Of a stretch of DNA of 46,835 nucleotides, positions 13,938 to 30,770 are shown piece after piece (position 1 is the stretch's first letter; each line of letters starts with the position of its first letter). Both the position numbers and the translations under genes were made by a program. The stretch is from Patescibacteria group bacterium. Its GTDB lineage: Bacteria; Patescibacteriota; Minisyncoccia; UBA6257; 02-FULL-45-10c. The stretch covers positions 1-46,835 of the forward strand of contig JAGWKK010000001.1 of the NCBI GenBank assembly GCA_028865335.1, read 5' to 3'. The notes under the pieces were generated by a model. That model did no database searches and had not been told where the DNA came from. It was given only the letters and a program-made list of their open reading frames with translations.

Positions 13938-14048
13938 ACAATACCTGAATTCACCGGCCCGGCGGTTCGCGCCGGAAACCGGGAAGCGATATCAGCATAC
14001 CAGAAAGGTGTGATATAATAAAGCTAAGAAAAGAGGGCTTGTCAAAGA

Positions 14049-15146
14049 ATGGAAGCCCCGATGCGTCCTATGCTCGATATTCTGAAAAAAATCTTTCCCA
14101 AGAAAACCTACCTAGGTGTGGATATCGGAACCACTTCGATCAAGGTGGCCGAATTGCGCCGGGAAAATGCGATCCTGGAGCTGATCAACTACGGATTCCT
14201 GGAGAGTTACGGACACCTGGAGCGCCTGAATAACGCGCTGCAGACCAGTACGCTCAAAATGCTCGATCAGGACATCATCGAGCTGCTGAAGATCCTCGTG
14301 AAGGATAGCGGCCTGAAGAGTACCGACGCCGTCGCTTCCATTCCCGCCTTTTCCGCATTCACGACGCTCCTGGAAATTCCCATCATGTCGCAGGCGGACA
14401 CGGCGCGCGCGATGCAGTTCCAGGCGAAGCAGTATATCCCGCTGCCCATCGCCGCGGTGACCATCGATTGGCTGAAGGTGGGGGAGCGTACCGATCCGCA
14501 GGGCAATAAGATCCAGCAGGTGCTGCTGGTATCCGTGCCGAATGAGCAGATCCAGAAATACAAGACCATTTTCAAAGCCGCAGGCCTGAATCTGATGTCG
14601 CTCGAGATCGAAGGACTGAGCTCGGCCCGCATCCTGACCGATGGCAACAAGGAGACGACGCTGATCCTGGATATCGGGTCGCGTTCCACCAGCATCTCCA
14701 TCGCCAAGGACGGGTACCTGAAGTTCGTCGGACAGACTGATTTCGCCGGCGGATCGCTGACGCAGACCATCGCTTCGGGACTCAATATCCGCGTGCGCCG
14801 GGCCGAAGACCTGAAGAAGCTCCGCGGCCTGCAGGGGACGGGCGGGGAATATGAACTGTCCACCCTCATGCTGCCGATCATGGATGTTATAATAAATGAA
14901 GCCCAGCGGGTTCGAAATAATTATGAAAAGGGGTATACTGATAAGGTAGGTCGGGTGGTGGTTTCGGGCGGCGGTGCGAATCTGATCGGGGTCATCCCGT
15001 ATATCCAGGACCAGATGGGTCTTCCGACGACGAAGGCCGATCCTTTCTCCCGGATCCGGTATCCTTCGACCATGCAGCCGCTGGTGAGCGAGCTTGGCCC
15101 TGAATTCACCGTCGCGATCGGACTCGGGGTGAAACTTTTGAGTTAA
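14049..15146 (+). CDS. pilM: type IV pilus assembly protein PilM (actin-like ATPase fold)
   Basis: 365 aa with the GVDIGTTSIKVAEL phosphate-1 motif. First gene of the pilus operon. The start codon choice among three nearby ATGs is uncertain. Confidence 0.85.
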   Translation: MEAPMRPMLDILKKIFPKKTYLGVDIGTTSIKVAELRRENAILELINYGFLESYGHLERLNNALQTSTLKMLDQDIIELLKILVKDSGLKSTDAVASIPAFSAFTTLLEIPIMSQADTARAMQFQAKQYIPLPIAAVTIDWLKVGERTDPQGNKIQQVLLVSVPNEQIQKYKTIFKAAGLNLMSLEIEGLSSARILTDGNKETTLILDIGSRSTSISIAKDGYLKFVGQTDFAGGSLTQTIASGLNIRVRRAEDLKKLRGLQGTGGEYELSTLMLPIMDVIINEAQRVRNNYEKGYTDKVGRVVVSGGGANLIGVIPYIQDQMGLPTTKADPFSRIRYPSTMQPLVSELGPEFTVAIGLGVKLLS

Positions 15147-15154
15147 TTGGCGAC

Positions 15155-15709
15155 ATGCCTCAGCAATTTGTACAAAATCCGATGAATCAGTTTGAGTCCG
15201 AGCGGCTGCCGGTAGGCTGGCCGTGGCGGTTTTTCATGGTCTCATTCGTGATTTTTCTGGTGAGCATCCTCGGCTACGTCGGATTGGCGTTCGGCTACGA
15301 GCCGTTTTTGAATACGAAAGTCGCTTCGCTGGATCAGAACATCACGCAGGGGGCGGCCGAGGTTTCCTCCACCCAGCAGCAGCAATTCATCCAGGTGTAT
15401 TCGCAGATCGTGAACCTGAAGAGCCTGGTCGGCGATCACGTGTTCTCATCCAACGTTCTCTTCCTGTTGCAGAGCGTCACGTATCCGCAGATTTATTACA
15501 CGCATGCGGATCTGAAGACGGCCGAACGCACGCTGACGCTGGACGGCGTCGCGCCGACGTTCGACATCCTTTCGCAGCAGCTGGCTGTTTTCTCCCAGAC
15601 GTCCGCCGTCACGGGTTACACGCTTGATCAGTCCCAGCTTAACAACAATCAGGTGCAATTCCGCGTGACACTGAAATTAGCCCCGTCGGTTTTTTCACTC
15701 TCTTCATGA
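15155..15709 (+). CDS. pilN: PilN-like pilus assembly membrane protein
   Basis: 184 aa with a single TM helix after a short cytoplasmic N-terminus. It lies between the pilM and pilO-like genes. Confidence 0.55.
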   Translation: MPQQFVQNPMNQFESERLPVGWPWRFFMVSFVIFLVSILGYVGLAFGYEPFLNTKVASLDQNITQGAAEVSSTQQQQFIQVYSQIVNLKSLVGDHVFSSNVLFLLQSVTYPQIYYTHADLKTAERTLTLDGVAPTFDILSQQLAVFSQTSAVTGYTLDQSQLNNNQVQFRVTLKLAPSVFSLSS

Positions 15710-16275
15710 AATCCTCAACCAAACGCGCATTAAGCCTGCTGCTCTCCGCCGCGCTGCTCATAGCCGCGCTGGCGATTTATGCGACGCTCATCGTGCCGGA
15801 ATACGACGTGATCCAGGGATTGCGCGGGACGATCGAAGCGAAAACCCAGGTGCTTGATCTGGAAACGAAAGCGGTCCAGCAGGTGAAGAGCCTGATCGTG
15901 AATCTGAAGAATATCAGCAACATCAGCGCTTCGCTCTCATCCGCGCTTCCTTCCGATCAGCAATTGGCGACCGCGGTGGCGCAGCTGAACGCGTTGGCGC
16001 AGGTGCATGGCCTGGCGGTGCAGGGAATCGGTGTGACGTTGCCGCCGGTGATGCCGTCGCCGGTCAGCCAGTCGTTCGCGAAGAACATCGGCACGCTCCG
16101 TTTTGACGTGAAATTCGCCGGCACCTACTCGGGCATGCGGGATTTCCTGTACGATGTCGAGCGCAATCTGCGGATCATGGACGTGCAGGGCCTGACCGTC
16201 GATTCCTCCACAAAATCGGGACAAGATCTGGTGACGTTCTCGGCCGTCATCGATACCTATTATCAAACTCCTTAA
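15706..16275 (+). CDS. pilO: PilO-like pilus assembly membrane protein
   Basis: 189 aa with TM helix, coiled coil and a C-terminal alpha/beta domain. It overlaps pilN by 4 nt. Confidence 0.55.
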   Translation: MKSSTKRALSLLLSAALLIAALAIYATLIVPEYDVIQGLRGTIEAKTQVLDLETKAVQQVKSLIVNLKNISNISASLSSALPSDQQLATAVAQLNALAQVHGLAVQGIGVTLPPVMPSPVSQSFAKNIGTLRFDVKFAGTYSGMRDFLYDVERNLRIMDVQGLTVDSSTKSGQDLVTFSAVIDTYYQTP

Positions 16276-16278
16276 TCT

Positions 16279-16569
16279 ATGGCCATCGTGCTTGAAGAAA
16301 AACAACCGTTTCACTGGGGCGCACTGCTGGTTTTCCTCGCCGCCATCATCGTCGTGGTCGGCGCGGCCTATTTCCTGTTCTTCTCCCCGTCGCCGGCGGC
16401 GGAAGAGATCATTCCGCTGAATGTGAAATCCACGACGGAACTTTCCACAGTGGTGCTGAGTCCGAACGACGTGCTCCAGAACAAGACGTTCCAGATTCTG
16501 AAACCGTACGGCGCTCCGGCCGCCGCGGCGAATCCGGGAGCGAATCTGAATCCGTTTCTTAAACCCTAA
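16279..16569 (+). CDS. small membrane protein of the pilus operon (96 aa)
   Basis: TM helix ALLVFLAAIIVVVGAAYFLFF. Tightly packed between the pilO-like gene and pilB. Confidence 0.5.
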   Translation: MAIVLEEKQPFHWGALLVFLAAIIVVVGAAYFLFFSPSPAAEEIIPLNVKSTTELSTVVLSPNDVLQNKTFQILKPYGAPAAAANPGANLNPFLKP

Positions 16570-16580
16570 CCCTCCCACCG

Positions 16581-18311
16581 ATGGACGAGAAGAAATTATT
16601 CGAAAACCTGGTCGCTGACGGACTGCTGACTGACGCCGTGGCGCAGAAACTCCTTTCCGAAGCTTCCTCCTCCGGCCGCCGCGCGGAGGATTTGCTGTAT
16701 GACCGCCATCTCGTCCCGGAAGAGGACATCGCCCGCGCGAAAAGCGCGCTGATGAAGATCCCGTTCAAGAAAGTGGCGCTCGCCGATCTGACGAAGGACC
16801 TGATCGCCAGCATTCCGGAGGAAACCGCACGGAACTACAAAGTGATCCCGCTGTCGCGCACGAAGGACATGCTGGTGGTGGGCATGGTGAATCCGACCGA
16901 TCCGCAGGCGCAGGAGGCGCTGCGGTTCGTCGCCAAACAGCAGAAGATCAATCTCGGCGTCTATCTGATCACGCCGGGCGATTTCGATCTCGCGCTCCAG
17001 AAATATTCCCCGTACAAGGACGTCGTGGACGCCGCGATCCGCGGACTGAACATCCGTCCCGGCCAGAAAAAAGGCGACTCCGGCGAAAAGCTGGTCCAGC
17101 TGGAAGCGGGCGTCGCGGTTTCCGAGGAGGCGCCGATCATCAAGCTGGTCGCCTCCACGCTGAAAGAGGCGGTGAACCAGCGCGCATCCGATATCCATAT
17201 CGAACCTCAGCGCTCCTCGCTCCGCATCCGGTTCCGCGTTGACGGCGATCTCAAGGAAGTCAGCAAGATGCCGATCGAACTCCACCAGCCGATCGTCTCC
17301 CGCGTCAAAGTGCTCGCGAACCTGAAGCTGGATGAGAACCGCATTCCGCAGGACGGACGGTTCCGCACGATCATTTTCGGACGCGACATCGATTTCCGCG
17401 TCGCGACGTTTCCGACGCCGGCAGGGGAGAAGGTCGCGATCCGCGTATTGGATCCGACCACCGGCCTGCGCACGCTGAACGATCTCGGACTGGTGGGCAC
17501 GAACCTCGCCACCGTCAAGGAAGCGATCGAGAAGCCGTACGGCTTGGTGCTGATCAGCGGACCGACCGGTTCCGGTAAGACGACGACGCTCTATGCGCTG
17601 CTGCAGCTTTTGAATAACGAGGCATCCAACATCGTCAGCCTGGAGGATCCGGTGGAGTACTATATAGACGGCATCAACCAGTCGCAGGTGCAGCCGGAAA
17701 TCGGCTACGACTTCGCGTCCGGCTTGCGCCAGATCCTGCGGCAGGACCCCGATGTGATCATGGTGGGTGAAATCCGCGATTCCGAAACGGCGCAGCTGAC
17801 GATCCACGCGGCGCTGACCGGTCACGTCGTGCTTTCCACGCTCCACACCAACGATGCGGTCGGCGTCATTCCGCGCCTGATCGATATGAAAGTGGACAGC
17901 TTCCTGATCCCTGCATCCGTGAACGTCATGATGGCGCAGCGGCTCGTATCCAAGATCTGCCAGAGCTGCCGCAAACCGGAACCGCTTCCGGCGAAGATCG
18001 CGGATCTCGTGAAAAAGGAATTGGAGCATGTGCCCGAGGGCATGCTGCCGAAAGACCGGACAAAACTCTGGCATGCGCCGGGTTGCGAGGTATGCAAGGG
18101 CCGCGGCATCACGGGCCGCGTCGCCGTCTTCGAAGTGTTGCGGATGACGCCGCAATTGGAGGGCGTCATTTCGGCCGGCGTCACGGAACAGAAGATCATC
18201 GAGGAGGCGCGCCGGCAGGGGATGATCACGATGCGCCAGGACGGCATCATCAAAGCATTGAACGGCCTGGTCAGCATGGAGGAAGTGCTGCGCGAGACAT
18301 CGGAGATATAG
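16581..18311 (+). CDS. pilB: type IV pilus assembly ATPase PilB (GspE family)
   Basis: 576 aa. Walker A GPTGSGKTTT, Asp and His boxes, tetracysteine CQSC...CEVC, N-terminal GspII_E-like domain. Confidence 0.95.
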   Translation: MDEKKLFENLVADGLLTDAVAQKLLSEASSSGRRAEDLLYDRHLVPEEDIARAKSALMKIPFKKVALADLTKDLIASIPEETARNYKVIPLSRTKDMLVVGMVNPTDPQAQEALRFVAKQQKINLGVYLITPGDFDLALQKYSPYKDVVDAAIRGLNIRPGQKKGDSGEKLVQLEAGVAVSEEAPIIKLVASTLKEAVNQRASDIHIEPQRSSLRIRFRVDGDLKEVSKMPIELHQPIVSRVKVLANLKLDENRIPQDGRFRTIIFGRDIDFRVATFPTPAGEKVAIRVLDPTTGLRTLNDLGLVGTNLATVKEAIEKPYGLVLISGPTGSGKTTTLYALLQLLNNEASNIVSLEDPVEYYIDGINQSQVQPEIGYDFASGLRQILRQDPDVIMVGEIRDSETAQLTIHAALTGHVVLSTLHTNDAVGVIPRLIDMKVDSFLIPASVNVMMAQRLVSKICQSCRKPEPLPAKIADLVKKELEHVPEGMLPKDRTKLWHAPGCEVCKGRGITGRVAVFEVLRMTPQLEGVISAGVTEQKIIEEARRQGMITMRQDGIIKALNGLVSMEEVLRETSEI

Positions 18312-18356
18312 CGGTGTTCGTTGGCTATTCAGCGCGGGAAATTCTATAATAAAGAC

Positions 18357-19439
18357 ATGGCGGAAAACGCTTCTTATAAAACAAAACTGGAGGACCTGCT
18401 TTTGACGACGGCGAAACAGAACGCGTCCGACCTGCATCTGGCGGTCGGCCGACGCCCGACGCTCCGTTTGGACGGCGTGCTGATCGGTCTCCAGAAAGAA
18501 CCGATCCTGACGCCGGAAGCGATGGAGGGGCTGGTTACGGCATTGCTGACTTCGGAACAGAAAGAGCGATTTTTAAAGGACAAACAGCTGGACTTCGCGT
18601 TCGCGTATGAAGACAAGGCGCGGTTCCGCGTGAACGTTTTCTATCAGCGCGGGTATATGGCCGCGGCGCTCCGTCTGATTCCGGCCCAGGTGAAGACGAT
18701 CGAGGAACTCGGACTTCCGCCGATTCTGCATGACTTCGCCCGCTTGTCGCAGGGATTCGTGCTGGTGGTGGGTCCGGCAGGCCACGGAAAATCGACCACG
18801 CTTGCGGCGATTCTGGATGAGGTGAACCATCAGCGTACCGACCACGTGATCACCATCGAAGACCCGATCGAATATCTGTTCGTGCAGGACCGCTGCATCA
18901 TCTCCCAGCGCGAAGTGGGGAATGATACGCCGAGTTTTCACGATGCGCTGAAGACATTGCTCCGCCAGGACCCGGACGTCGTGATGATCGGTGAAATGCG
19001 CGACCGCGAATCCATCTCCACGGCCATGACCGCCGCGGAAACCGGCCACCTGGTCTTTTCCACCCTGCACACCAACTCCGCTTCCCAGACCATCGACCGT
19101 ATCATCGACAGTTTTCCCGCCGATCAGCAGGGCCAGATCGTTTCCCAGCTCTCCGCGACGCTGGTGGGTATCGTCTCCGAACGTCTCATTCCGAAAATCG
19201 ACGGCGGCCGCGCTCCGGCGTGTGAAATCATGCTGGTGAATTCCGCGATCCGCAACCTGATCCGCGAACGGAAAACCTATCAGATCGACCTGGTGATCGA
19301 AACGAGCATGCAGGAAGGCATGGTCACGCTGAACCGCTCGCTCGCCGAGCTGATCCGCAAGAAACAGATCTCGCTGGAGAACGCGGAACTCTATTCGCTC
19401 AATCCGTCGGAGTTGAGAATATTATTGGAGCGCGGTTAA
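18357..19439 (+). CDS. pilT: twitching-motility/retraction ATPase PilT
   Basis: 360 aa from ATG 18357 (the ORF track starts at a TTG at 18321). Walker A GPAGHGKSTT and AIRNLIRE motif. TATAAT at 18345-18350 lies 6 nt before the ATG. Confidence 0.9.
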   Translation: MAENASYKTKLEDLLLTTAKQNASDLHLAVGRRPTLRLDGVLIGLQKEPILTPEAMEGLVTALLTSEQKERFLKDKQLDFAFAYEDKARFRVNVFYQRGYMAAALRLIPAQVKTIEELGLPPILHDFARLSQGFVLVVGPAGHGKSTTLAAILDEVNHQRTDHVITIEDPIEYLFVQDRCIISQREVGNDTPSFHDALKTLLRQDPDVVMIGEMRDRESISTAMTAAETGHLVFSTLHTNSASQTIDRIIDSFPADQQGQIVSQLSATLVGIVSERLIPKIDGGRAPACEIMLVNSAIRNLIRERKTYQIDLVIETSMQEGMVTLNRSLAELIRKKQISLENAELYSLNPSELRILLERG

Positions 19440-19442
19440 ACG

Positions 19443-20651
19443 ATGAAATTCCAATACACGGCGCGAACGAAACAAGGGGAGCTGCAGACGGGATTCGTGG
19501 AATCGGTCAATCGGGAAGCGGCGGTGAACATTCTGGTCGGACACGACCTTTTTGTGTTATCAGTGACGGCTGCCGAGGCGCCGAAGTGGTACGAGCCGTT
19601 CGTGAATCTGCTCAACCGGGTGAAGCCGAATGACCTGATGATATTCACGCGGCAGTTCGCGACACTGCTGGAGGCGAAGATCTCGCTCGGCGATTCGCTG
19701 CGCAACCTGTACCGGCAGACCCATAATTCGATCCTGAAGGAAGTCATCTCCGACATCACGTCGGATGTGGACTCGGGCCTGCTGCTGTCGCAGGCGCTGG
19801 AGAAGCACTCCAATATCTTTTCGCAGTTCTATGTGAGCATGGTCCGTTCGGCGGAGGTGACCGGGCGTCTGGAGGAAGTCGTCGGCTTCATGGCCGATTA
19901 TCTGGAAAAGGAAGTCGGCCTGCTCGGCCGCGTCCGCGCGGCGCTGATCTATCCGGCGGTGATCGTCGCCCTTTTCGTCGTCGTCGTCGGCATCATGATC
20001 GGCGTGGTGTTTCCGCAGCTGGAACCGGTGTTCGCGGAATCCAATGTCCAGCTTCCGCTGGTGACGCAGATCCTGCTCGGGACCGGAAATTTCGTGGCGC
20101 AGTGGTGGCTGGCGCTCCTGATCGTCCTCGTCGTCTTCGCGATGATCCTGTATGACTATCTGCAGACCGCCGAAGGGAAGATCGTGGTGGATGAATTGCG
20201 CGTGCGGATGCCGGTGCTGGGTGAACTGTATAAGAAGGTGTATGTCGCCCGGTTTGCGGAATCGTCCGCGGTATTGATCCGCGGCGGCATTCCGATCGCC
20301 CAGGCGCTGGAGATTTCGGGCCATACGATCGGCAGCATCATCTACCGCGACGTGCTCCACGAAGTAGCCGAGGCGGTGCGCGGCGGACAGCTCATGTCGC
20401 AGGCGCTTGCCGAACACGAGGAATATTTCCCGCCGCTGGTCCATCAGATGGTGTCGGTGGGGGAATCGACCGGAAAATTGGAAGCGCTGCTTTCCCGCAT
20501 CGGAGCATTCTATACGCGCGATGTGGATACCATGGTGGGGAATCTGGTTGACCTCATCCAGCCGGCGCTGATGGTGGTCATCGGCATACTCGTCGGCCTG
20601 CTCTTCGCCGCGGTGCTTCTGCCGATCTACAACTTGGCGCAGTCGTTCTAA
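19443..20651 (+). CDS. pilC: type IV pilus inner-membrane platform protein PilC (GspF family)
   Basis: 402 aa with a duplicated T2SS-F domain architecture and three TM segments. Confidence 0.9.
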   Translation: MKFQYTARTKQGELQTGFVESVNREAAVNILVGHDLFVLSVTAAEAPKWYEPFVNLLNRVKPNDLMIFTRQFATLLEAKISLGDSLRNLYRQTHNSILKEVISDITSDVDSGLLLSQALEKHSNIFSQFYVSMVRSAEVTGRLEEVVGFMADYLEKEVGLLGRVRAALIYPAVIVALFVVVVGIMIGVVFPQLEPVFAESNVQLPLVTQILLGTGNFVAQWWLALLIVLVVFAMILYDYLQTAEGKIVVDELRVRMPVLGELYKKVYVARFAESSAVLIRGGIPIAQALEISGHTIGSIIYRDVLHEVAEAVRGGQLMSQALAEHEEYFPPLVHQMVSVGESTGKLEALLSRIGAFYTRDVDTMVGNLVDLIQPALMVVIGILVGLLFAAVLLPIYNLAQSF

Positions 20652-20732
20652 AGGGTCCGCCCGGGCGAGTATGGTATACTAAAGGTATTATCGGTTATAA
20701 TCACTATTATGCATAAAAAAGGATCTAAATCG

Positions 20733-20762
20733 GGTTTCACCCCGTCACCAGATCGAGCGCCG
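20733..20762 (-). repeat. repeat motif copy c with the adjoining cggcgctcga segment (empty site for the palindrome)
   Basis: The reverse complement cggcgctcgatctggtgacggggtgaaacc equals 8191-8240 minus the 20-nt palindrome, with one mismatch. Confidence 0.8.
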
Positions 20763-20818
20763 AAACGCCCCCTCGATGTCGACGATAGTAATCCTTTCGA
20801 GTAATAATTATATATTTT

Positions 20819-21301
20819 ATGACAAAACAATCATTACGAGATAAGCGTTTAAAAAATCGCAGCGCTCGGCTCGGTGCGGGGTTCACCCTTATTGAAGTTC
20901 TCGTCGTCGTTTCCATCATCGGCTTGCTTTCAGCCATCATCCTGGTCGGCTTGAGCGGATTCCGCGCGCGCGGCCGCGACACCCGGCGCATCGCCGATCT
21001 GAAGCAGGTCCAGAACGGCCTTGAGCTTTTCTATGCGAAGAACGGCAACTATCCGGCGTCCCTGAGCGACATGCTGACTGCGAATATCGGCGTCACCCAG
21101 CTGCCGAAGGATCCGTCCACGACGCAGGATTATTTCTACAGCTACCAGACATCCGACAAGCAGGGATATGTTCTTGCCGCGAAACTGGATGCAAGCAGCG
21201 GCGACGCCATCTTCAATGACAGTGCGACTTCGGTTACCATCGGGAACTACACGGGATCGGTGACCAGCTGTGCCCAGCCCTACTACTGCGTTACGTTTTA
21301 A
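20819..21301 (+). CDS. pilA: type IV pilin (prepilin-type N-terminal cleavage/methylation domain), likely major pilin
   Basis: 160 aa. Class III signal ...RLGAG|FTLIEVLVVVSIIGLLSAIIL with Glu+5. Confidence 0.85.
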   Translation: MTKQSLRDKRLKNRSARLGAGFTLIEVLVVVSIIGLLSAIILVGLSGFRARGRDTRRIADLKQVQNGLELFYAKNGNYPASLSDMLTANIGVTQLPKDPSTTQDYFYSYQTSDKQGYVLAAKLDASSGDAIFNDSATSVTIGNYTGSVTSCAQPYYCVTF

Positions 21302-21313
21302 TCCGGTATTGCG

Positions 21314-22180
21314 ATGATGACCGCTTTCATTTCGGTCCTCCTTTTCGCCTTCGGCCTCATTTTCGGCAGTTTTCTGAACGTCGTCATTTTCCGATATCAT
21401 CCTGACCGGTCATTATTTGCGGCGGGTCCGCTGGGCGGGCGTTCGCATTGCCGGTCCTGTAACGCGCAGCTCGCATGGTATGAGCTGATTCCGGTGGTGA
21501 GTTTCGCGATCCAGCGCGCGCGGTGCCGCCATTGCGGAGCGCCGCTGTCCTGGCAATATCCGTTGGTGGAGCTGCTGACCGGATTCATTTTCCTGACCCC
21601 GCTTTATTTCTATGACGCGCATGCGACCGTCTTTTCTTTGTGGACCGGCGGTATCTGGACCGTCGCCTTCGCGTCATTCCTGGTGCTCGCGGCGATCGAC
21701 TACTACTGGTTCATCATTCCCGACGAACTGAACATCTTCATCGCGGCTCTCGGCGCGGTCCGCATCGCGGTTGAATATTATTTCCATACCTTCGGCGCTT
21801 TCGCGGGATCGTTCATCGGGAGTTATGCGGAACTGTTCGGATTACGCGGAGATGTTCTCACGAACCATATCGCCGGCGCGCTGTTCGGCTTGGCGCTGAT
21901 CGGCGTGATCATCGCCGTGACGCGCGGCCGCGGGATGGGAGTGGGCGATCTGAAACTCGCCGGCGCGCTCGGCGTCCTGTTCGGCTGGCCCGATGTCATA
22001 TTCGTTCTCGCATTCGGATTCGTTCTCGGGTCCCTGTATGCGGTCGGCGTCCTGGTACGGCGGAGCAAGGGGATGAAAGATTCCGTTCCGTTCGGTCCGT
22101 TCCTGGTCGCGGGCGCGACCGCGCTGGTGTTCTACGGACATGCGATTTTGACCTGGTATTTCGGCATTTTCCTCTCATAA
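21314..22180 (+). CDS. pilD: prepilin peptidase (A24 family) PilD
   Basis: 288 aa polytopic membrane protein. N-terminal CxxC...CxxC zinc motif (CRSC...CRHC) and GMGVGDLKL catalytic Asp motif. Confidence 0.9.
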   Translation: MMTAFISVLLFAFGLIFGSFLNVVIFRYHPDRSLFAAGPLGGRSHCRSCNAQLAWYELIPVVSFAIQRARCRHCGAPLSWQYPLVELLTGFIFLTPLYFYDAHATVFSLWTGGIWTVAFASFLVLAAIDYYWFIIPDELNIFIAALGAVRIAVEYYFHTFGAFAGSFIGSYAELFGLRGDVLTNHIAGALFGLALIGVIIAVTRGRGMGVGDLKLAGALGVLFGWPDVIFVLAFGFVLGSLYAVGVLVRRSKGMKDSVPFGPFLVAGATALVFYGHAILTWYFGIFLS

Positions 22181-22210
22181 CCGCGTTCATTTTGTGGTAC
22201 GATAGAGATA

Positions 22211-22726
22211 ATGAAGACTCGGCAGTTCTCTCAACGGGGGTTCACGCTTGTGGAAACGCTGGTTGCCATCAGTGTTTTGGTGATGTTGAGCGGAGTCATG
22301 GTGGTGTATAACCGGTCCAGCGAGCAGGAAATCGTGATGCTGCGCGAACAGGCGAAACTTATTTCGTTCGTGTCGCGGGCGAAATCATTCGCGCTCCAGA
22401 CCTATCTCTCGGGAACGCCGGCGTGCGGCTACGGCATCCACGTGGATCAGGCGCAGAACTCCGTCATCCTTTTCCGCGATCTCGCGGCGAAGTGCCCGGG
22501 TGACAATAAATATACCGACTCCAGCGAGCTGGTCGACAGTTACCAGCTTCCGGCGACGGTCCATATCGCGTCGGCGTCGTTGACTGACGTCCTGTTTGTG
22601 CCGCCGGATCCGGACGTGATATTTACGCCGTCTCAAAATCAGGGGACTGTCACGCTGCAGACCTTAAGCGGCGGCATGGAGACCTCGATCACGATCAGTA
22701 ACGCGGGGCAGATAACGACCCGCTAA
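22211..22726 (+). CDS. minor pilin / pseudopilin (GspH/FimT-like)
   Basis: 171 aa. Leader MKTRQFSQRG|FTLVETLVAISVLVML. Confidence 0.75.
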   Translation: MKTRQFSQRGFTLVETLVAISVLVMLSGVMVVYNRSSEQEIVMLREQAKLISFVSRAKSFALQTYLSGTPACGYGIHVDQAQNSVILFRDLAAKCPGDNKYTDSSELVDSYQLPATVHIASASLTDVLFVPPDPDVIFTPSQNQGTVTLQTLSGGMETSITISNAGQITTR

Positions 22727-22731
22727 TATAT

Positions 22732-23214
22732 ATGCGACATTCCTCCCGCTGCGGACAAATGATGATTGAAGCCATGGTGGCGCTTTCGATCGTACTCGTC
22801 GGTCTTTTGGGCATCTTCTCGCTGGTGTCGCGCTCGCTCAGTCTGAACCGGGTGGCGACGGAGCAGTATACCGGCGCGAACCTTGCCGCGGAGGGCATTG
22901 AGATCGTCAAGAATATTCTGGATGCGAACGCGCTGCAAAAGAACGCATGGAACATGGGAGTGGCGCCGGGGGAGTACCAGGTGGATTATACTTCCGCCTC
23001 GCTGGCGCAATATGGCGGAGTGCCGCTTCATTATGATCCCGCGACCGGCATGTATTCCTATGCCGGCCCCGAGACCACTTCCTACAACAGGAAAATAACC
23101 GTCAGCCAGCCGTCGCCTGATGAGATCGTCGTGGATTCCACGGTCAGCTGGACCACGCGCGACAGCGGGCAGTTCCAAGTCGATCTGGAAGATCATTTCT
23201 TTAATTGGCGATAG
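22732..23214 (+). CDS. minor pilin (PilV-like)
   Basis: 160 aa. CGQMMIEAMVALSIVLVGLLGIFSL resembles a class III signal plus hydrophobic helix with Glu+5. Confidence 0.6.
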   Translation: MRHSSRCGQMMIEAMVALSIVLVGLLGIFSLVSRSLSLNRVATEQYTGANLAAEGIEIVKNILDANALQKNAWNMGVAPGEYQVDYTSASLAQYGGVPLHYDPATGMYSYAGPETTSYNRKITVSQPSPDEIVVDSTVSWTTRDSGQFQVDLEDHFFNWR

Positions 23215-23227
23215 ATGGGGAGCGCGC

Positions 23228-23255
23228 AGCGGTTAGCGTAAAGCGGTTAGTGCTA
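23228..23255. repeat. heptamer array agcggtt-agcgtaa-agcggtt-agtgcta (4 x 7 nt)
   Basis: An inverted, imperfect counterpart of the array at 23631-23658 (the reverse complement of taacgct is agcgtta). Confidence 0.65.
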
Positions 23256-23268
23256 AAACACAAAGCAT

Positions 23269-24147
23269 ATGTATATAGAATCCTATAAGAAATTCATTGT
23301 CTGGCAGAGGTCAATGGAGTTGGCGAAAGAAATCTATGGCGTTACTGAAAAATTACCCGGGCACGAGCTATATGCTTTTGTGTCCCAAATGCGCCGCGCC
23401 GCAATATCCATACCGTCCAACATTGCCGAGGGATACAAAAGAAGCGGTATCGGAGAATTCCTGCATTTTTTGAGCATTGCCGATGCTTCGGCGGCTGAGC
23501 TGGAAACGCAACTGCTCTTGGTGAAGGATATATACCGTAAAATTGATTTTACGAAGTGCGAGGAATTGCTCCTGGAAGTTCAAAAGATGCTCATCGTAAT
23601 GATAAAGAAATTGAGAGATAAGAAGTCGCTCAACGCTCAACGCTTAACGCTTAACGCTCGAAAAGGTTTCACCTTAGTCGAGCTTTTGGTGACCATGACG
23701 TTATTCCTGGTGGTCGTAAGCATCGCCACGAGCGTATTCATCAGCACGCTCCGCACGCAGCGGGAAACTGTCGCGCTGATTGCGGCGAACAGCAATGCGT
23801 CGCTGACGCTGGAACAGATGTCGCGTGAAATTCGCACCGGCACCGGCTTTGTCATGAAAGGGTCCGATCTCGCATTCACGAACGCGAAAAGCGAAAGCGT
23901 GGAATATCATCTGGATTCCGGAACCCATACGCTGCAGCGCAGTACTGACGGGGGAGCGACGTTCCTGCCGCTGACCGCGGATAATGTTAGCGTGCAGCGG
24001 GCGACGTTCCGTCTGTGGAACGGCGATCCGGCGGTGCCGTATCCGCCGCGCATCACAATCGCGCTGGGCGTCGGGGCTGTCGGCGTTCCGTTTACGACTT
24101 CAGTCGCGAACCTGGAGGTGTCGGTCAGCGCGCGGTCATTGCAGTAA
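23269..24147 (+). CDS. in-frame fusion: four-helix-bundle protein (23S rRNA intervening-sequence protein family) joined to a PilW-like minor pilin
   Basis: 292 aa. Residues 1-115 (FIVWQRSMELAKEIY...QMRRAAISIPSNIAEGYKRSGIGEFLHFLSIADASAAELETQLLL) fit the TIGR02436-type four-helix-bundle family, from memory. Residues about 131 onward (KG|FTLVELLVTMTLFLVVVSIA) are a class III pilin signal. No stop codon separates the two parts. Confidence 0.7.
   Translation: MYIESYKKFIVWQRSMELAKEIYGVTEKLPGHELYAFVSQMRRAAISIPSNIAEGYKRSGIGEFLHFLSIADASAAELETQLLLVKDIYRKIDFTKCEELLLEVQKMLIVMIKKLRDKKSLNAQRLTLNARKGFTLVELLVTMTLFLVVVSIATSVFISTLRTQRETVALIAANSNASLTLEQMSREIRTGTGFVMKGSDLAFTNAKSESVEYHLDSGTHTLQRSTDGGATFLPLTADNVSVQRATFRLWNGDPAVPYPPRITIALGVGAVGVPFTTSVANLEVSVSARSLQ
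23631..23658. repeat. heptamer array caacgct-caacgct-taacgct-taacgct (4 x 7 nt) inside the CDS at the fusion junction
   Basis: Perfect 7-nt periodicity. TAA triplets are out of frame in the current register. Confidence 0.85.
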
Positions 24148-24181
24148 GGTCGCGGGGCGTTTGTGATATACTGGAAGTATT

Positions 24182-24463
24182 ATGATGCGCGTACGGGATT
24201 TTCTGAAAAAACGGTGGGTCAAAGCGATTCTCGTCGCTTTCGGCGTTGCAGTACTGGCGGCGCTGCTTTGGAATCGGTATCAGGATGCGACCACGAGTTC
24301 CTTCTACGGCGCCCTAACTGTTGCGCAGAGGGACTGCATCGTGTCAAAGACGAGCCAGCAGTTTCTTGACCGCCTGAAGGTCCGCGGAGAACATTTCACC
24401 GATTCGGATCAGTCGATGATCAGGGCCATGACCGGCTGCATTTCAGGTCAATTCTACCAATAA
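24182..24463 (+). CDS. membrane-anchored hypothetical protein (93 aa)
   Basis: N-terminal TM helix AILVAFGVAVLAALLW. Lies within the pilus operon. Confidence 0.5.
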   Translation: MMRVRDFLKKRWVKAILVAFGVAVLAALLWNRYQDATTSSFYGALTVAQRDCIVSKTSQQFLDRLKVRGEHFTDSDQSMIRAMTGCISGQFYQ

Positions 24464-24464
24464 C

Positions 24465-26216
24465 ATGAAACGAACTCTTCTCAGCATCCTTGTTATCGCG
24501 GGGACGGGCGTCGCGCTATACGCGGCGCAGGCGGCGTATGTTGATGTCGCCGGTGCGTGTAATTATGTTTCCTTCACCGCCGCATCGGGATCGTTAGGCA
24601 TGGATCAGGTCGCCAAAGATGATCCGGGCGCATTCATATATAATTCCGCGGTGGTATACGGCAATCCGCGGATCGGCAGCCTGCTGGATTACGGATATAA
24701 CAATCCAAACTACAATCCGTATTATTACGGACAGGCGTTTCCCGAACCGATCATTCCGAACAATACCTATTCATATACCGTGACCAGCGAAGTCCCGGGC
24801 AGCAGCCGGACCTGTATTCTTTCCTACTGTTTCGGCACTCCCGATGTGGTCACCGAGCAGTACCAGGCGAAGAGCGTCTGTCAGGCGAATGTTTCGGTGA
24901 CGAGTAACGCGGTCAGTACCGCCCCGGTTCCGAGCGTGAACACCAGCAACGATACGAACCTGGTCAGCGTCACCTCGCCGAAGCAGACGAATACGAGCAT
25001 TTCATTGGGTATCGACGTGAGTAAGCTGAATCTGGGACACTACCAGACTTTCAATGATGTGAAGGAAGGGGTGCTGACGGTGACATATCAGGATTGGTGG
25101 GGATGGACGACGGGATGGCAGAGCCAGATCTGGGACTCCTCATTCAGCTGTTCCCTGACGTCGTGCGATACGAGCGCGAGCCAATTGCTGTCGCTTGCTC
25201 CGGCCGGCGATCCGAATCTCGGTTCAAGCGGCGCGTTCTGGCAATACAGCTACAACACGCTTTCCTTTGATGTGTACAAACTCTCTTCTTCAAATCAGGT
25301 GGCGATTCCGACAGACGCGACCTATGACCTTCTGCGCAATGGACAGGAGATTGCGACTAATCTCCCCGCAACGCAGACGTCCTATACTGACAGCGGACTT
25401 GAGCAGGGCGTTTCGTATGCATACACAGTCCGCGCGCCGAGCATCTATGCCCGAAATAATGCCACGAATATTCCTACCGCGGTAACGGGGGCATATCAGC
25501 CGGGCTTCTATCTCTTCCCGCAGGGATCGGCGCCTTCGTTCGCGACCGCTCCGATTCCGCTCGCTCCGTCGCAGTTCAAGAGCGCGATATTCGGCACGAA
25601 CGGAGTGTATGTTCCGAAAGCATCGATCGGCCTGCAGATCAGCATCCCGGATAACGCCGTCGGCGAATATCGGACGCCGGGCGTCTTCTCTCAGCAGGCA
25701 AGCGGAGGCGTGGCGTGCGTCGCCGTCAACCACAATTCGAGTTCCTGTATTTGGAATTGGAATACGCCGACGGTTGCCACGGTTTCGTATGACAAGACCT
25801 ACGACATTCTGCGCCAGGTCGGCAGCAGCACGCCGCAGGAAATCGCAAGCAAGATTTCCATCACCCAGCAATCATATTACGATACAAATCTGACGCCGGG
25901 TACGACCTATACCTATACCATCCGGATGCCGAGCATCCACAGCCGCGATGGCATCAGCGGAGGGACATTCATTCCGCTGGGCTCAAGCACTCCGCAGCCG
26001 CTTCCGGCGCTCGCTTCTCCGACTGACACGACGCTGACGGTCACGACTGTCGGGGTCCAGCCGAAGCCGCAGCCTCAACCGCAGCCGCAGCAACCGCCGC
26101 AGACAGGAACCGGACTCGGACCAGGGAGCGGGAGCGGATCGGGAGGCGCTTCCGGATCCACTTCCACGCAGCCTGGCTTCACGCCGGGTGGCGTGCAGGA
26201 GGTATTGCCTCAATAG
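24465..26216 (+). CDS. large secreted/surface protein with two FN3-like repeats and a PQ/GS-rich tail, possibly pilus-associated
   Basis: 583 aa with a signal/anchor LLSILVIAGTGVALYAAQA. Repeats YDLLRNGQEIATNLPATQTSYTDSGLEQGVSYAYTVRA and YDILRQVG...ITQQSYYDTNLTPGTTYTYTIRM. Tail PKPQPQPQPQQPPQTGTGLGPGSGSGSGG. Confidence 0.6.
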   Translation: MKRTLLSILVIAGTGVALYAAQAAYVDVAGACNYVSFTAASGSLGMDQVAKDDPGAFIYNSAVVYGNPRIGSLLDYGYNNPNYNPYYYGQAFPEPIIPNNTYSYTVTSEVPGSSRTCILSYCFGTPDVVTEQYQAKSVCQANVSVTSNAVSTAPVPSVNTSNDTNLVSVTSPKQTNTSISLGIDVSKLNLGHYQTFNDVKEGVLTVTYQDWWGWTTGWQSQIWDSSFSCSLTSCDTSASQLLSLAPAGDPNLGSSGAFWQYSYNTLSFDVYKLSSSNQVAIPTDATYDLLRNGQEIATNLPATQTSYTDSGLEQGVSYAYTVRAPSIYARNNATNIPTAVTGAYQPGFYLFPQGSAPSFATAPIPLAPSQFKSAIFGTNGVYVPKASIGLQISIPDNAVGEYRTPGVFSQQASGGVACVAVNHNSSSCIWNWNTPTVATVSYDKTYDILRQVGSSTPQEIASKISITQQSYYDTNLTPGTTYTYTIRMPSIHSRDGISGGTFIPLGSSTPQPLPALASPTDTTLTVTTVGVQPKPQPQPQPQQPPQTGTGLGPGSGSGSGGASGSTSTQPGFTPGGVQEVLPQ

Positions 26217-26223
26217 AAATGAG

Positions 26224-26252
26224 AAGAACCGGGCTCGTGCCCGGTTCTTTTG
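26224..26252 (+). terminator. rho-independent terminator
   Basis: aagaaccgggc-tcgt-gcccggttctt followed by tt. Confidence 0.7.
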
Positions 26253-26279
26253 TTGAGGCATTTCATCTATAATGAAGGT

Positions 26280-28739
<2,460 letters not shown>

Positions 28740-28773
28740 ACCCCTAGCATCTAAGACGTTCACAGGAGGGGAT

Positions 28774-29220
28774 ATGAAGAAGCTCGCACTGGCGTTCGCC
28801 GCGTTCATCGCGTGCGCGTTGCCGGCTCAGGCGCTGCATCTCGACGAAGCGGTCAAGCTGCTGCCGATGACGAACGAGCAGGTGGTCACGCAGATCGACG
28901 ACGATCAGTTCGCCGCGGCCGTGGTCGCGAAGATCAGGGCGGGGCAGAGCGTCTCGCAGGATGATCGCGCCCGCGCGGTCGGGTACTGCGCCGGGGAGTA
29001 CGCCCTGCTCCGGACGAACCGGATGCGCCGGAAGGAGGTTCGCAAGCTCATGAAGCCGATCAACCGTCAGATCCTCTACCTGATCGGCGAGCACTACGTT
29101 CACTTCGACGAGTTCACGGGGCGGCTCCTCTCGATGAGGATCGCCAACCGGCTCAGCTCCTACCTGGACTTCAAGGCGGAGCGCTACCGCGCTTTCCTGG
29201 CGGTCCTGGGGAGCGGTTGA
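28774..29220 (+). CDS. secreted hypothetical protein (148 aa), orphan cassette C5
   Basis: SD caggagggg. Signal peptide MKKLALAFAAFIACALPAQA. Own promoter and terminator. Confidence 0.55.
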   Translation: MKKLALAFAAFIACALPAQALHLDEAVKLLPMTNEQVVTQIDDDQFAAAVVAKIRAGQSVSQDDRARAVGYCAGEYALLRTNRMRRKEVRKLMKPINRQILYLIGEHYVHFDEFTGRLLSMRIANRLSSYLDFKAERYRAFLAVLGSG

Positions 29221-29229
29221 TCCGCATGG

Positions 29230-29265
29230 CGCCTACGCAGACAGCATCGCGTAGGCGTCTTTTTA
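29230..29265 (+). terminator. rho-independent terminator
   Basis: cgcctacgc-(10-nt loop)-gcgtaggcg followed by tcttttt. Confidence 0.7.
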
Positions 29266-29360
29266 TTTCTTCTCCATAAGGAGAAGAAATTATCCTCCAT
29301 AGCTCAGCCGATAGGGACTGAGCGACGGCGGATTTCATTGCGTTATAATCCCCTTATAGT

Positions 29361-29389
29361 TTGACACCGAAATGGATATATGATATATT
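29361..29389 (+). promoter_or_regulatory. consensus sigma70-type promoter of 29495..30058
   Basis: TTGACA (29361-66), 17-nt spacer, TATATT (29384-89). Confidence 0.65.
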
Positions 29390-29395
29390 ACCTCC

Positions 29396-29494
29396 AACCA
29401 TCGAGGGTCACGAGATCCCGATGTTTGTACCTTGAGTACCCTTACTCGCGGATAGCGGGGAAGGATGTTCGGCGACTAGCCGAAGGGGTGTGTC
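29396..29494 (+). promoter_or_regulatory. structured 5' leader, second copy of the motif at 10713-10831
   Basis: Stem 1 is catcg (29399-403) with cgatg (29419-23). Stem 2 is ctcgc (29445-49) with gcggg (29455-59). Stem 3 is ttcggc (29468-73) with gccgaa (29479-84) and overlaps the SD gaagggg. Confidence 0.55.
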
Positions 29495-30058
29495 ATGGGT
29501 CAGGTCAATGCGTTGAAGGACTTCAAGCGCGGGCAGTTGGATGCCGCGCTGATGAAGATCGGTCAGGAGGCGGGGCTAGGAACCGCTGAAGGAATCAAGG
29601 CTCTTCTCCGCGGTGAGCTCGTCGTGAGGACGCTGGCGAGGTCTTTCAAGCATGACAAGACCTTGGTCGGCTGGAGTCTTCTTATCCCTGGTCCGAAGGT
29701 CGAAGAAGATTTCAGACCCGGCATTGTGGAGTTCCTCGATGGCGAAAATTCCATTTGCGACGAGGAGCTGAGGAAGCGGGCTCGGAATTTGGGAGCGAAT
29801 CTGGGCCAGGCCCACGCCGAGTATCTTCTGGAACGCCAGAACCGGATTCCGTGGGAGTACCGGGGGGATGACCTGGTTTTTCCGGCAACGGTTTGGAATC
29901 CGTCGGGCGGCGACCGTTACACCTCTGATTGCTACAGCCCGATCCTCGTTTGGAACGGTAGTTTTTGGGATTTGGGCTTTAATCGACTCGGGAACGGCTG
30001 GAATCATCACGCCCGCCTGGTCAAGGCTATGCAGCCTTTTCGTCGGAAGGCGAAATAA
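29495..30058 (+). CDS. hypothetical protein (187 aa), orphan cassette C6
   Basis: Its N-terminal segment is similar to 10832..11419, and it shares that gene's leader and terminator style. The C-terminal domain differs (W/G-rich ...VWNPSGGDRY...VWNGSFWDLGFNRLGNGWNHHARLV). Confidence 0.6.
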   Translation: MGQVNALKDFKRGQLDAALMKIGQEAGLGTAEGIKALLRGELVVRTLARSFKHDKTLVGWSLLIPGPKVEEDFRPGIVEFLDGENSICDEELRKRARNLGANLGQAHAEYLLERQNRIPWEYRGDDLVFPATVWNPSGGDRYTSDCYSPILVWNGSFWDLGFNRLGNGWNHHARLVKAMQPFRRKAK

Positions 30059-30065
30059 TCAACTC

Positions 30066-30119
30066 CCGGATCCCCTCAAGGAAGAGAAATCTTTCTTGGA
30101 GGGATCCGGCCCCTTTTTA
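30066..30119 (+). terminator. long-stem rho-independent terminator
   Basis: ccggatcccctcaaggaag-agaaat-cttccttggagggatccgg-type hairpin with 19 paired positions (1 mismatch, some G-U), then cccctttttat. Confidence 0.7.
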
Positions 30120-30190
30120 TTTCATGAGTAAATATTGGAATTATTCGTAAAGATTGAAAGACTCCTTTTCGTATTTGGTATACTCATTAT

Positions 30191-30715
30191 ATGGATGGAA
30201 GAATCATTATAAATATTTCCGGCAAATCAACATCTGGCAAAACGACTTTAATGAGAGAATTGGCGTCAAGGAATATTGGCTGGTATTCACTTTTTCGGGA
30301 TAGGGTGAAAAAACAGTTTTCAGGATACAGCAGGGAACGTGATCGAGAAGTTATAGAGAAGGTGGTATTCGGGTTTTATTGCGTGCTTTGCGAAAAAGGA
30401 CTTCCTATCCTACTTGATGCGTCTATTGATACGAGAGATGCCTATTCAGAGTATTTAAAAGTTGCAGAAAAGAATCATTATAAATTTTTATCGATCAATC
30501 TTGATATTCCTCAAGGCGTGGCGCTTAAAAGGTTTCGCGAAAGAGTGAGGAGGGCAAAGGATCAAGGTGATAAGATTTCAGTAACGGACGAAGACACTTT
30601 TTTAAGGAATCAAAATAAAGAGCACTTCTATCCCTCTGACGCGCTTAGCTTTGACACATCCAGGTTAACTGTAGAAGAAATTGCCAGTGATATTATGGAT
30701 AAGATTGTTTTATAG
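30191..30715 (+). CDS. P-loop NTPase/kinase (AAA_33 / zeta-toxin-like fold), 174 aa
   Basis: Walker A GKSTSGKTT and Walker B-like ILLDAS. Conspicuously AT-rich compared with its neighbours, by eye. TATACT at 30179-84 lies 6 nt before the ATG. Confidence 0.6.
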   Translation: MDGRIIINISGKSTSGKTTLMRELASRNIGWYSLFRDRVKKQFSGYSRERDREVIEKVVFGFYCVLCEKGLPILLDASIDTRDAYSEYLKVAEKNHYKFLSINLDIPQGVALKRFRERVRRAKDQGDKISVTDEDTFLRNQNKEHFYPSDALSFDTSRLTVEEIASDIMDKIVL

Positions 30716-30770
30716 ACAAGCGGTTATTTTGCCCCTTTTTTTATATTCAGATTCGCTTTATAATTTGCAT

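Follow-up and report, generated by a model that had tools for sequence, protein, structure and literature searches.

The 46,835-nucleotide (nt) stretch of DNA analysed here, which we call the window, is positions 1 to 46,835 of contig JAGWKK010000001.1 (assembly GCA_028865335.1) from a Patescibacteria group bacterium. On its forward strand lies a type IV pilus operon in which one minor pilin gene begins with a compositionally foreign domain. This gene is a single open reading frame (ORF) at 23269..24147 (+), 292 amino acids (aa) long and open along its whole length, in which a four-helix-bundle (4HB) domain and a prepilin motif follow one another with no stop codon between them. The 4HB part is matched by PF05635 over residues 7-117 (E 3.8e-32, 111 bits for a cut-off of 33.8) and by TIGR02436 over model positions 1-109 of 109 (E 1e-33, 113-116 bits for a cut-off of 24), while the motif KG/FTLVELL, in which the slash marks the predicted cleavage site, is recognised at residues 129-153 or 154 by PF07963 (N_methyl, E 2.8e-7) and TIGR02532 (E 2.7e-6). 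An earlier sequence-only reading of this DNA had described such a stop-free passage from a 4HB gene, of the family known from 23S rRNA intervening sequences (IVSs), into a pilin signal, and had proposed a TIGR02436 search of the N-terminal domain; the open frame and the two sets of matches bear it out.

The limits of the flanking arms, a dip in base composition and 30 related cassettes delimit an inferred cassette of 438 nt, or 146 codons, at 23221..23658 (+). It opens with a left arm of five degenerate heptamers, AGCGCGC AGCGGTT AGCGTAA AGCGGTT AGTGCTA (23221..23255, +), and an A-rich spacer (23256..23268, +) ahead of the cassette's start codon. Codons 1-119 of the 4HB ORF (23269..23625, +) correspond to the full length of its free-standing relatives, and the right arm, CGCTCAA CGCTCAA CGCTTAA CGCTTAA CGCTCGA (23627..23661, +), is translated as the linker LNAQRLTLNAR. 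The leader ends with CGA AAA GGT (R131 K132 G133; 23659..23667, +), with a predicted peptidase cut after G133, and is followed by the mature minor pilin, F134-Q292 plus stop (23668..24147, +), a long N-terminal helix and then a beta sheet, which aligns with its orthologs at 55% mean column identity. The insert is AT-richer than its surroundings, as had been noticed earlier: its GC content is 43.4%, its GC content at third codon positions is 54.6% against 71-81% in neighbouring genes, and only 1.7% of 357-nt segments have a GC content as low. The spacer carries no Shine-Dalgarno motif, which is uninformative because the motif is nearly absent upstream of the 16 gene starts checked in the pilus operon and nearby. 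By tblastn the cassette has no other copy in the window, consensus scans for a promoter or terminator of its own gave nothing above shuffle expectation, and Rfam returns only tRNAs across the window, with no known RNA family in the arms.

When 23221-23658 is deleted in silico, what remains is ATG GGG CGA AAA GGT TTC, encoding MGRKG/FTLVE, an ordinary short leader comparable to MNKG/, MRKG/ and MRGG/ in unfused orthologs. This fits an insertion after pilin codon 2 (ATG GGG) and, together with the protein family and the inverted arms, agrees with the earlier view of an IVS-type cassette in the first codons of the pilin. The ATG in question opens an orphan mini-ORF, ATGGGGAGCGCGCAGCGGTTAGCGTAA (23215..23241, +), of 8 codons, counted from its ATG, up to a TAA at 23239-23241; it lies in the frame of the fusion ORF, 54 nt upstream of it, and directly 3' of the stop codon of the preceding gene, an intact minor pilin of the GQMMIEAMV type (22732..23214, +) that ends in FFNWR before a TAG at 23212-23214 and whose C-terminus is shared with the related loci L001, L002, L055, L057 and L058. 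The first two codons, ATG GGG, may have been the pilin's original start, and the rest is left-arm sequence. The orphan start noted earlier is thus real in position and length, but it is not conserved: it is missing in L002, L003a, L004, L069 and L121, and in L001 and L003b the 'ATG' is made up of an A before the upstream TGA and is out of frame, for which reason we rejected it as a conserved old start. At best, it is specific to the window. In L004 (2880-2900), AATGGGGGTCAAGCC follows the right arm and contains an ATG shifted by one base from the pilin frame (GGQAIAE), such that a one-base change in the G run would toggle between an independent start and a fusion.

An abundant cassette with inverted heptamer arms

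Searching with the 4HB part alone yielded about 8000 protein matches, the best 120 of which are free-standing proteins of about 119 aa that are 60-71% identical to the 4HB of the window. A filter-free search of 1.84 billion representatives with the same query returned 18,094 matches, and a scan of one genome per species located 51 loci, mostly in Patescibacteria metagenome-assembled genomes, the closest being a cassette of Ca. Paceibacter (73% identity). The flanks of about 30 loci share one anatomy. Left arrays, of the AGCGTTT, AGGGTTT or AGGGCTA types, begin at, or inside, the stop codon of the upstream gene, which is co-oriented, and are followed by a short A/T spacer and the ATG of the 4HB ORF. 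Free-standing copies of this ORF have their stop, TAA or TGA, within the first right-array units, typically after KKLNAKR (CTAAACGCTAAACGCTAA). Right arrays are of the TAAACGC, TAAACCC or TTAGCCC types, with stop triplets blocking all three frames in 14 of 18 free-standing right arms, and the ATG of the next gene follows the cassette at ~0-60 nt in most cases, often ~0-15 nt past the right array. On the other side, 21 of 27 loci have the end of an upstream same-strand ORF at most about 65 nt from the 4HB ATG. Not one of the 40 closest cassettes is located in rRNA; the usual habitat is a short spacer between two co-oriented operon genes.

Judged by these comparisons, 23221-23658 is one copy of a very abundant, compositionally foreign Patescibacteria cassette. 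With the free-standing TIGR02436 genes of Patescibacteria it shares a 60-73% identical protein, the same arms, the spacer and the co-oriented position. The difference lies at the downstream end, where those genes have their TAA or TGA stop in the right arm and the next gene keeps its ATG, whereas the window has a CAA and no start codon separating the two parts. This CAA (23638-23640, Q124) occupies the place of the in-frame TAA stop of free-standing cassettes. In frame 0, the units of the window's right arm are CAA (Q124) and CGA (R131), TAA being retained out of frame, and the arm has 0, 3 and 2 stops in its three frames, which confirms the out-of-frame TAA triplets reported earlier. The fused loci L001-L004 have the same stop-free frame-0 pattern, with units TCT, TAC or CAA, and the linkers of fused relatives read, for example, LNPKPSTLNPK or LNAKRSTLNA. 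Moreover, nucleotide alignment shows that the fusion junctions in relatives are homologous DNA. With the in-frame TAA turned into CAA, translation would pass through the right arm into the pilin, and the comparison of arms shows that the right arm is under selection for read-through.

As for the arms themselves, Tandem Repeats Finder (TRF) detects the right array at 23627-23659 (period 7, 4.7 copies, 92% matches). The left array is degenerate, with no TRF call and only a 14-nt pair at 79% in a repeat search, although it aligns unit by unit with the left arm of L004, the closest cassette. The sequence-only reading had described two inverted heptamer arrays flanking the gene, which thus holds fully for the right one and in degenerate form for the left. 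The inversion is real, AGCGGTTAGCGTAAAGCGGTTAG aligning to the reverse complement of CTCAACGCTTAACGCTTAACGCT with 18 matches and 5 mismatches (z = 6.4 versus shuffles), but it is imperfect and was not picked up by a seed-based inverted-repeat search of the window. The minimum-energy fold joins the left and right arms; the fold of the whole region is no better than shuffles (z -0.56), and neither are the folds of single arms. Across the family, the match between a left arm and its reverse-complemented right partner has a z above 4 in 26 of 32 cassettes, and the pairing energy of a left arm averages -35.8 kcal/mol with its own partner, -29.9 with the right arms of other cassettes and -22.3 with shuffles (permutation p < 1e-4). 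Since pairing with the own arm is better than with other arms, the arms co-vary, which is also apparent from their heptamer types (AGCGTTA/TAACGCT, GGGTTTA/TAAACCC and GGGCTAA/TTAGCCC). No RNA signature was found in the arms: mismatches are mostly transversions, without an excess of G-U pairs (33 G-U-compatible versus 31 A-C type mismatches). A DNA-level terminal inverted repeat would therefore account for the arms equally well. The earlier suggestion that the arms pair in the mRNA in the manner of RNase III-processed stems is plausible, with complementarity and co-variation in its favour, but it has no advantage over a repeat acting at the level of DNA.

Recurrence and turnover of cassettes in pilin leaders

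When the whole fusion served as query, PF05635 preceded pilin-like sequence in about 65 of the best 120 protein clusters, and among the partners were other pilin paralogs and long pilin-like proteins. Used as query alone, the 4HB introduces no bias towards fusions. In that search, 14 of the 150 best representatives measure 200 aa or more and carry the 4HB N-terminally, and all 14 continue into a G followed by a pilin-type hydrophobic segment, 11 of them with a canonical GxxxxE. Conversely, when the mature pilin alone was used as query, 63 of the 68 orthologous metagenome loci with enough upstream DNA were found to be without a 4HB. All five that do have one carry it in frame, four of them as open fusions.

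Among 20 fusions, the identities of the pilin part and of the 4HB part are uncorrelated (Spearman -0.15). For example, the pair P0011/P0028 has an identity of 84% for the pilin and 48% for the 4HB, and the pair P0002/P0007 one of 41% for the pilin and 85% for the 4HB. Since most orthologous loci have no 4HB and the two similarities are uncorrelated, these comparisons indicate that the fusion is recurrent, not ancestral, and the long form had indeed not been taken for the original one in the sequence-only reading. In P0021, whose pilin is 65% identical, the same site is occupied by an unrelated ORF of the GxxExxY/PF13366 family, which is also read through into KG/FTLVE. Its cassette (L055, 1000-1445) has terminal inverted repeats of its own of about 40 nt (ACCGATCC...GGATCGGT), and the translated right arm of this cassette type, FVDSDKxFVxSDRSxG, persists as a remnant in the leaders of the unfused P0092 and P0098. 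A different cassette at the same site, together with the uncorrelated similarities, rules out a single ancestral fusion.

Decay is as evident as replacement. P0055, P0031 and P0314 are remnants of internal deletions in which the frame is kept and the start of the 4HB itself is still in frame with the pilin, and L109 is an in-frame remnant reduced to an ORF-less arm pair that still provides the start codon. Many unfused leaders are built of translated repeat units, such as MKLKTKNLKLKTKG/ or FVDSDKxFVxSDRSxG/. The cassettes in these leaders thus turn over.

Several further loci are worth recording. In L003 (5085-6200), two adjacent minor pilins of one operon each carry a cassette; the first, on a GQIMVEA pilin, has an intact 4HB and GGGTTTA-type arms, and the second, which has AGCGTTA-type arms, has been reduced by deletion to a remnant and sits on the pilin orthologous to the fused one of the window. 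The 37-residue leader of P0038 (L058, 2495-2615) is encoded by a DNA hairpin better than 200 of 200 shuffles (z -2.5) and, by analogy with ORF-less rRNA IVSs, may be an ORF-less arm pair. In the window, the 21-residue leader of the major pilin (20819-20881), MTKQSLRDKRLKNRSARLGAG/FTLIE, resembles the C-terminus and linker of the fusion's 4HB (KKLRDKKSLNAQRLTLNARKG/F), the DNA being weakly similar (TTACGAGATAAGCG versus TTGAGAGATAAGAAG), and may be an old cassette remnant. Directly 5' of the pilB start, TTAAACCCTAACCCTCCCACCG (16555-16580) resembles a degenerate right arm of the TAAACCC type, and a small ORF upstream of pilB ends at a TAA inside this stretch.

Fate of the leader and competing accounts

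The pilus assembly genes PilM, PilO, PilB, PilT, PilC and PilD span 14049-22180, near the fusion ORF and on the same strand (+). PilM starts at 14049, PilO at 15706, PilB at 16581, PilT at 18321 and PilC at 19443, and the operon further contains a pilin gene at 20819 (+) and two genes for minor pilins, which start at 22211 and 22732 (+). The prepilin peptidase PilD (21314..22180, +; PF06750, A24_N_bact, E 5e-28; PF01478, Peptidase_A24, E 3e-9) is encoded three genes upstream of the fusion ORF, in the same operon. Downstream of the minor pilins, 24465-26216 encodes a protein of 583 residues whose N-terminus is signal-like, whose match to fn3 is weak and whose C-terminal tail is rich in PQ and GS; it may be a surface protein associated with the pilus. 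The window's strongest low-GC island is at 29950-30720 (GC 0.36-0.40 versus a mean of 0.555). It covers the ORF 30191-30715, whose product has a kinase-like domain (AAA_33, E 1e-9). Heptamer arms are absent there; a G+C-rich hairpin with a T-run precedes the ORF at ~30068-30115, and the ORF is probably another foreign gene.

AlphaFold2 predicts the fusion protein with a mean pLDDT of 87, as a 4HB (helices 10-26, 31-57, 61-88 and 95-121, pLDDT above 90), a disordered linker (residues 122-129, pLDDT below 50) and a pilin fold made of a helix (136-189) and 7 strands. According to Foldseek, the N-terminal domain matches 2GSC (TM 0.90, rmsd 1.2 Å) and 2RLD (TM 0.84) and, at a greater distance, Avd (4DWL, TM 0.79), and the C-terminal domain weakly matches the minor pseudopilin XcpW (5BW0_G). 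Fused and unfused orthologs alike retain G-1 and E+5. We consider it probable that the cassette is a selfish element which is tolerated since the prepilin peptidase removes the leader. The cassette sits in the leader-coding start of the minor pilin, after ATG GGG, the pilin having lost its own start. A ribosome starting at ATG 23269 would read the 4HB, the disordered right-arm linker (SLNAQRLTLNARKG) and then the prepilin, whose transmembrane helix would insert with its N-terminus in the cytoplasm. Prepilin leaders are cleaved on the cytoplasmic side (PMC4471445). The peptidase of the operon would cut on that face, after G133, freeing a normal mature pilin and leaving the 4HB protein in the cytoplasm. 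A prepilin leader would thus be a safe harbour, where an in-frame selfish insert is harmless to the host protein because the host itself removes the leader together with the insert, a protein-level counterpart of the removal of an rRNA intervening sequence by RNase III. That 4HB fusions are found in frame only on pilin-type proteins would follow from the cutting off of the 4HB with the leader.

Several considerations weigh against this account. We know of no peptidase shown to accept a folded 130-residue leader. The crystal structures 2GSC and 2RLD have five chains each, and by analogy a 4HB pentamer could hinder the membrane insertion of the fused precursor. Counted from M1, the leader has 132-133 residues with a folded domain, which places it far outside the known prepilin leaders of 6-26 aa, or up to about 30 (PMC4471445), and the sequence-only reading was right to call a 130-residue leader unusual. 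The top matches of the fused query are biased towards fusions, and the two unbiased censuses are small, with 14 proteins and 5 loci. Mobility would follow from turnover; we found neither a pair of filled and empty sites between close strains nor a transposase associated with the cassette. The remaining two considerations, a nonsense codon in L104 and an invariant internal methionine, belong to the alternative that comes closest to this account.

In that alternative, which the sequence-only reading had also named, translation of the pilin starts at the methionines of QKMLIVMIKK (about 23587-23601), which would give a leader of 23-27 residues (MLIVMIKKLRDKKSLNAQRLTLNARKG/F), short like those of other prepilins. 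The long product would then be minor or without relevance, and the 4HB would simply be a reading frame that overlaps from upstream. We regard internal initiation as unlikely, yet it is a serious contender. In L104 (about 1030-1490), the 4HB lies in the pilin frame but a nonsense codon (Q to stop, within EEV-stop-KML) directly precedes the conserved methionine of QKML, and the pilin is intact; going by its sequence, the L104 pilin must start internally, so that at least one relative can do with an internal start. Across the aligned fusions M107 is invariant, with a second methionine at about M111, and unfused leaders such as MIKIINKKSLSARRG (P0036) resemble the QKML segment. Start choice is not constrained by a Shine-Dalgarno motif, absent at most genes of the genome, and the loss of the right-arm TAA is required in this case as well. 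However, the QKML methionine is equally conserved in free-standing 4HB proteins and is thus no evidence of a start. Internal initiation would also leave the first 106 codons free to decay, and yet they are open and match the family in 4 of the 5 census loci and in about 65 clusters, and the deletion remnants P0055, P0031 and P0314 retain the 4HB's own start in frame. An internal start and the full-length route are not mutually exclusive.

The other three accounts we consider far less probable, the last least of all. If the arms paired and the stem-loop were excised from the RNA, the message for MGRKG/FTLVE would be restored, or the pilin mRNA would be regulated. The complementary, co-varying arms are consistent with this, as are the in-frame orphan ATG, the textbook leader that an exact loss of 438 nt would yield, and the Coxiella IVS, where an ORF of the 4HB family is combined with heptameric repeats and with a 28-bp stem that RNase III cuts (PMC4990558). 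Nevertheless, relatives lack the orphan ATG or have it out of frame, the right arm is free of in-frame stops, which is relevant only if it is translated, and neither the near-equal mismatch classes nor the fold of the region, no better than shuffles, points to RNA. RNase III does not religate, and a cut stem would part the pilin coding region from any start codon. A phase-variable switch of the slipped-strand kind suggested in the sequence-only reading, by which gain or loss of one 7-nt unit of the right array brings a TAA into frame, turns the pilin off and leaves a free-standing 4HB, could draw on the 7-nt period, which shifts the frame by one, on the out-of-frame TAAs and on the heptamer copy number beside the S23p ORF, which differs among Coxiella strains (PMC4990558). 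The array is, however, a poor substrate for slippage, with only 2+2 identical adjoining units, and across diverged fusions the arms remain 4-5 units long and the N-terminal part 127-135 aa. An exact-anchor scan of metagenome contigs for length variants of the right array (9-39 nt between anchors) was empty, the strain having no second copy there. Finally, the 4HB might be a domesticated cytoplasmic domain, serving for example in regulation or docking and not removed. It is intact and well folded in many fusions, but 63 of 68 orthologs do without it, it does not co-evolve with the pilin, its site is taken by an unrelated GxxExxY cassette in one relative, remnants that decayed in frame are frequent and its codon composition is foreign. 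In addition, an uncleaved pilin cannot assemble into a filament (PMC4471445). Removal of the cassette together with the leader thus remains the account that we favour.

Relation to known systems and significance

The window element is reminiscent of the IVSs in the 23S rRNA of Coxiella burnetii and Leptospira, where an ORF of PF05635, a family named '23S rRNA-intervening sequence protein', lies in the loop of a long stem formed by terminal inverted repeats; the arms of the window element could likewise form a stem enclosing the ORF. In Coxiella, the S23p ORF of the IVS is enclosed by a 28-bp terminal stem that RNase III cuts, and is preceded by heptameric repeats whose number differs among strains; the ORF has no effective ribosome-binding site and is decaying, and the element is regarded as selfish (PMC4990558). 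ORFs of the S23p family also occur in rRNA insertions of CPR bacteria (PMC11270868). Heptameric repeats beside the ORF, the absence of a good ribosome-binding site and a decay-prone ORF are common to both. In contrast to IVSs, the window element is located between two pilin coding regions and not in rRNA, both of its arms are heptamer arrays, the right one is translated, and its proposed removal would be carried out by a peptidase on the protein instead of by RNase III on the RNA. We do not claim a link between the GxxExxY family and rRNA IVSs, of which the literature we found makes no mention.

Inteins offer an analogy, as in-frame selfish inserts that are harmless through removal from the protein, but the window insert is N-terminal, would rely on a host signal-peptide peptidase without self-splicing or religation, and has no homology to them. 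With the class III signal peptides of type IV pilins, long type IVb leaders included, the fusion shares G-1, the hydrophobic helix, E+5 and an A24 peptidase in the operon; it departs from them in its leader of 132-133 residues with a folded domain. Avd of diversity-generating retroelements (DGRs) has the same four-helix fold, and NF033474 matches weakly (E 0.003, below cut-off). We nevertheless rejected a DGR/Avd reading, as the DivGenRetAVD model stays below its cut-off and the window has neither a reverse transcriptase (none among the ORFs scanned) nor a template/variable repeat pair (no direct repeats of at least 35 nt in 14000-30000). Full-text literature, in which coverage of journals is incomplete, did not yield any account of IVS-type ORFs located in leaders of pilins or in spacers of operons. 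The cassette-pilin arrangement, which recurs in many uncultured Patescibacteria, thus appears to be so far undescribed.

An immediate implication is practical. Several fused pilins are called just 'four helix bundle protein' by JGI and NCBI, which is an annotation trap, and a cleavable N-terminal fusion system is a possible use. The favoured account predicts that a prepilin peptidase processes a folded-domain leader five times longer than any known, and the many natural filled, decayed and replaced sites can be used for working out mobility. These findings, which are relevant to mobile elements, pilus biogenesis and CPR biology, place the ORF family of rRNA IVSs in a far commoner setting, the operon spacers and pilin leaders of Patescibacteria, and explain the oddly long, repeat-derived leaders of many Patescibacteria pilins. 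We tentatively extend this to a general proposal, which could well prove too broad: the leaders of Patescibacteria prepilins may be safe harbours for a large and as yet unrecognised class of hairpin-flanked small-gene cassettes, of the 4HB and GxxExxY nuclease-fold types, whose folded passenger of more than 100 residues would be released into the cytoplasm by the prepilin peptidase. If this is true, the cassette would be the first selfish element to have its in-frame insertion made harmless by a signal peptidase of the host, and rRNA 'intervening sequences' would be one niche of a general element with heptamer arms that carry stops in three frames.

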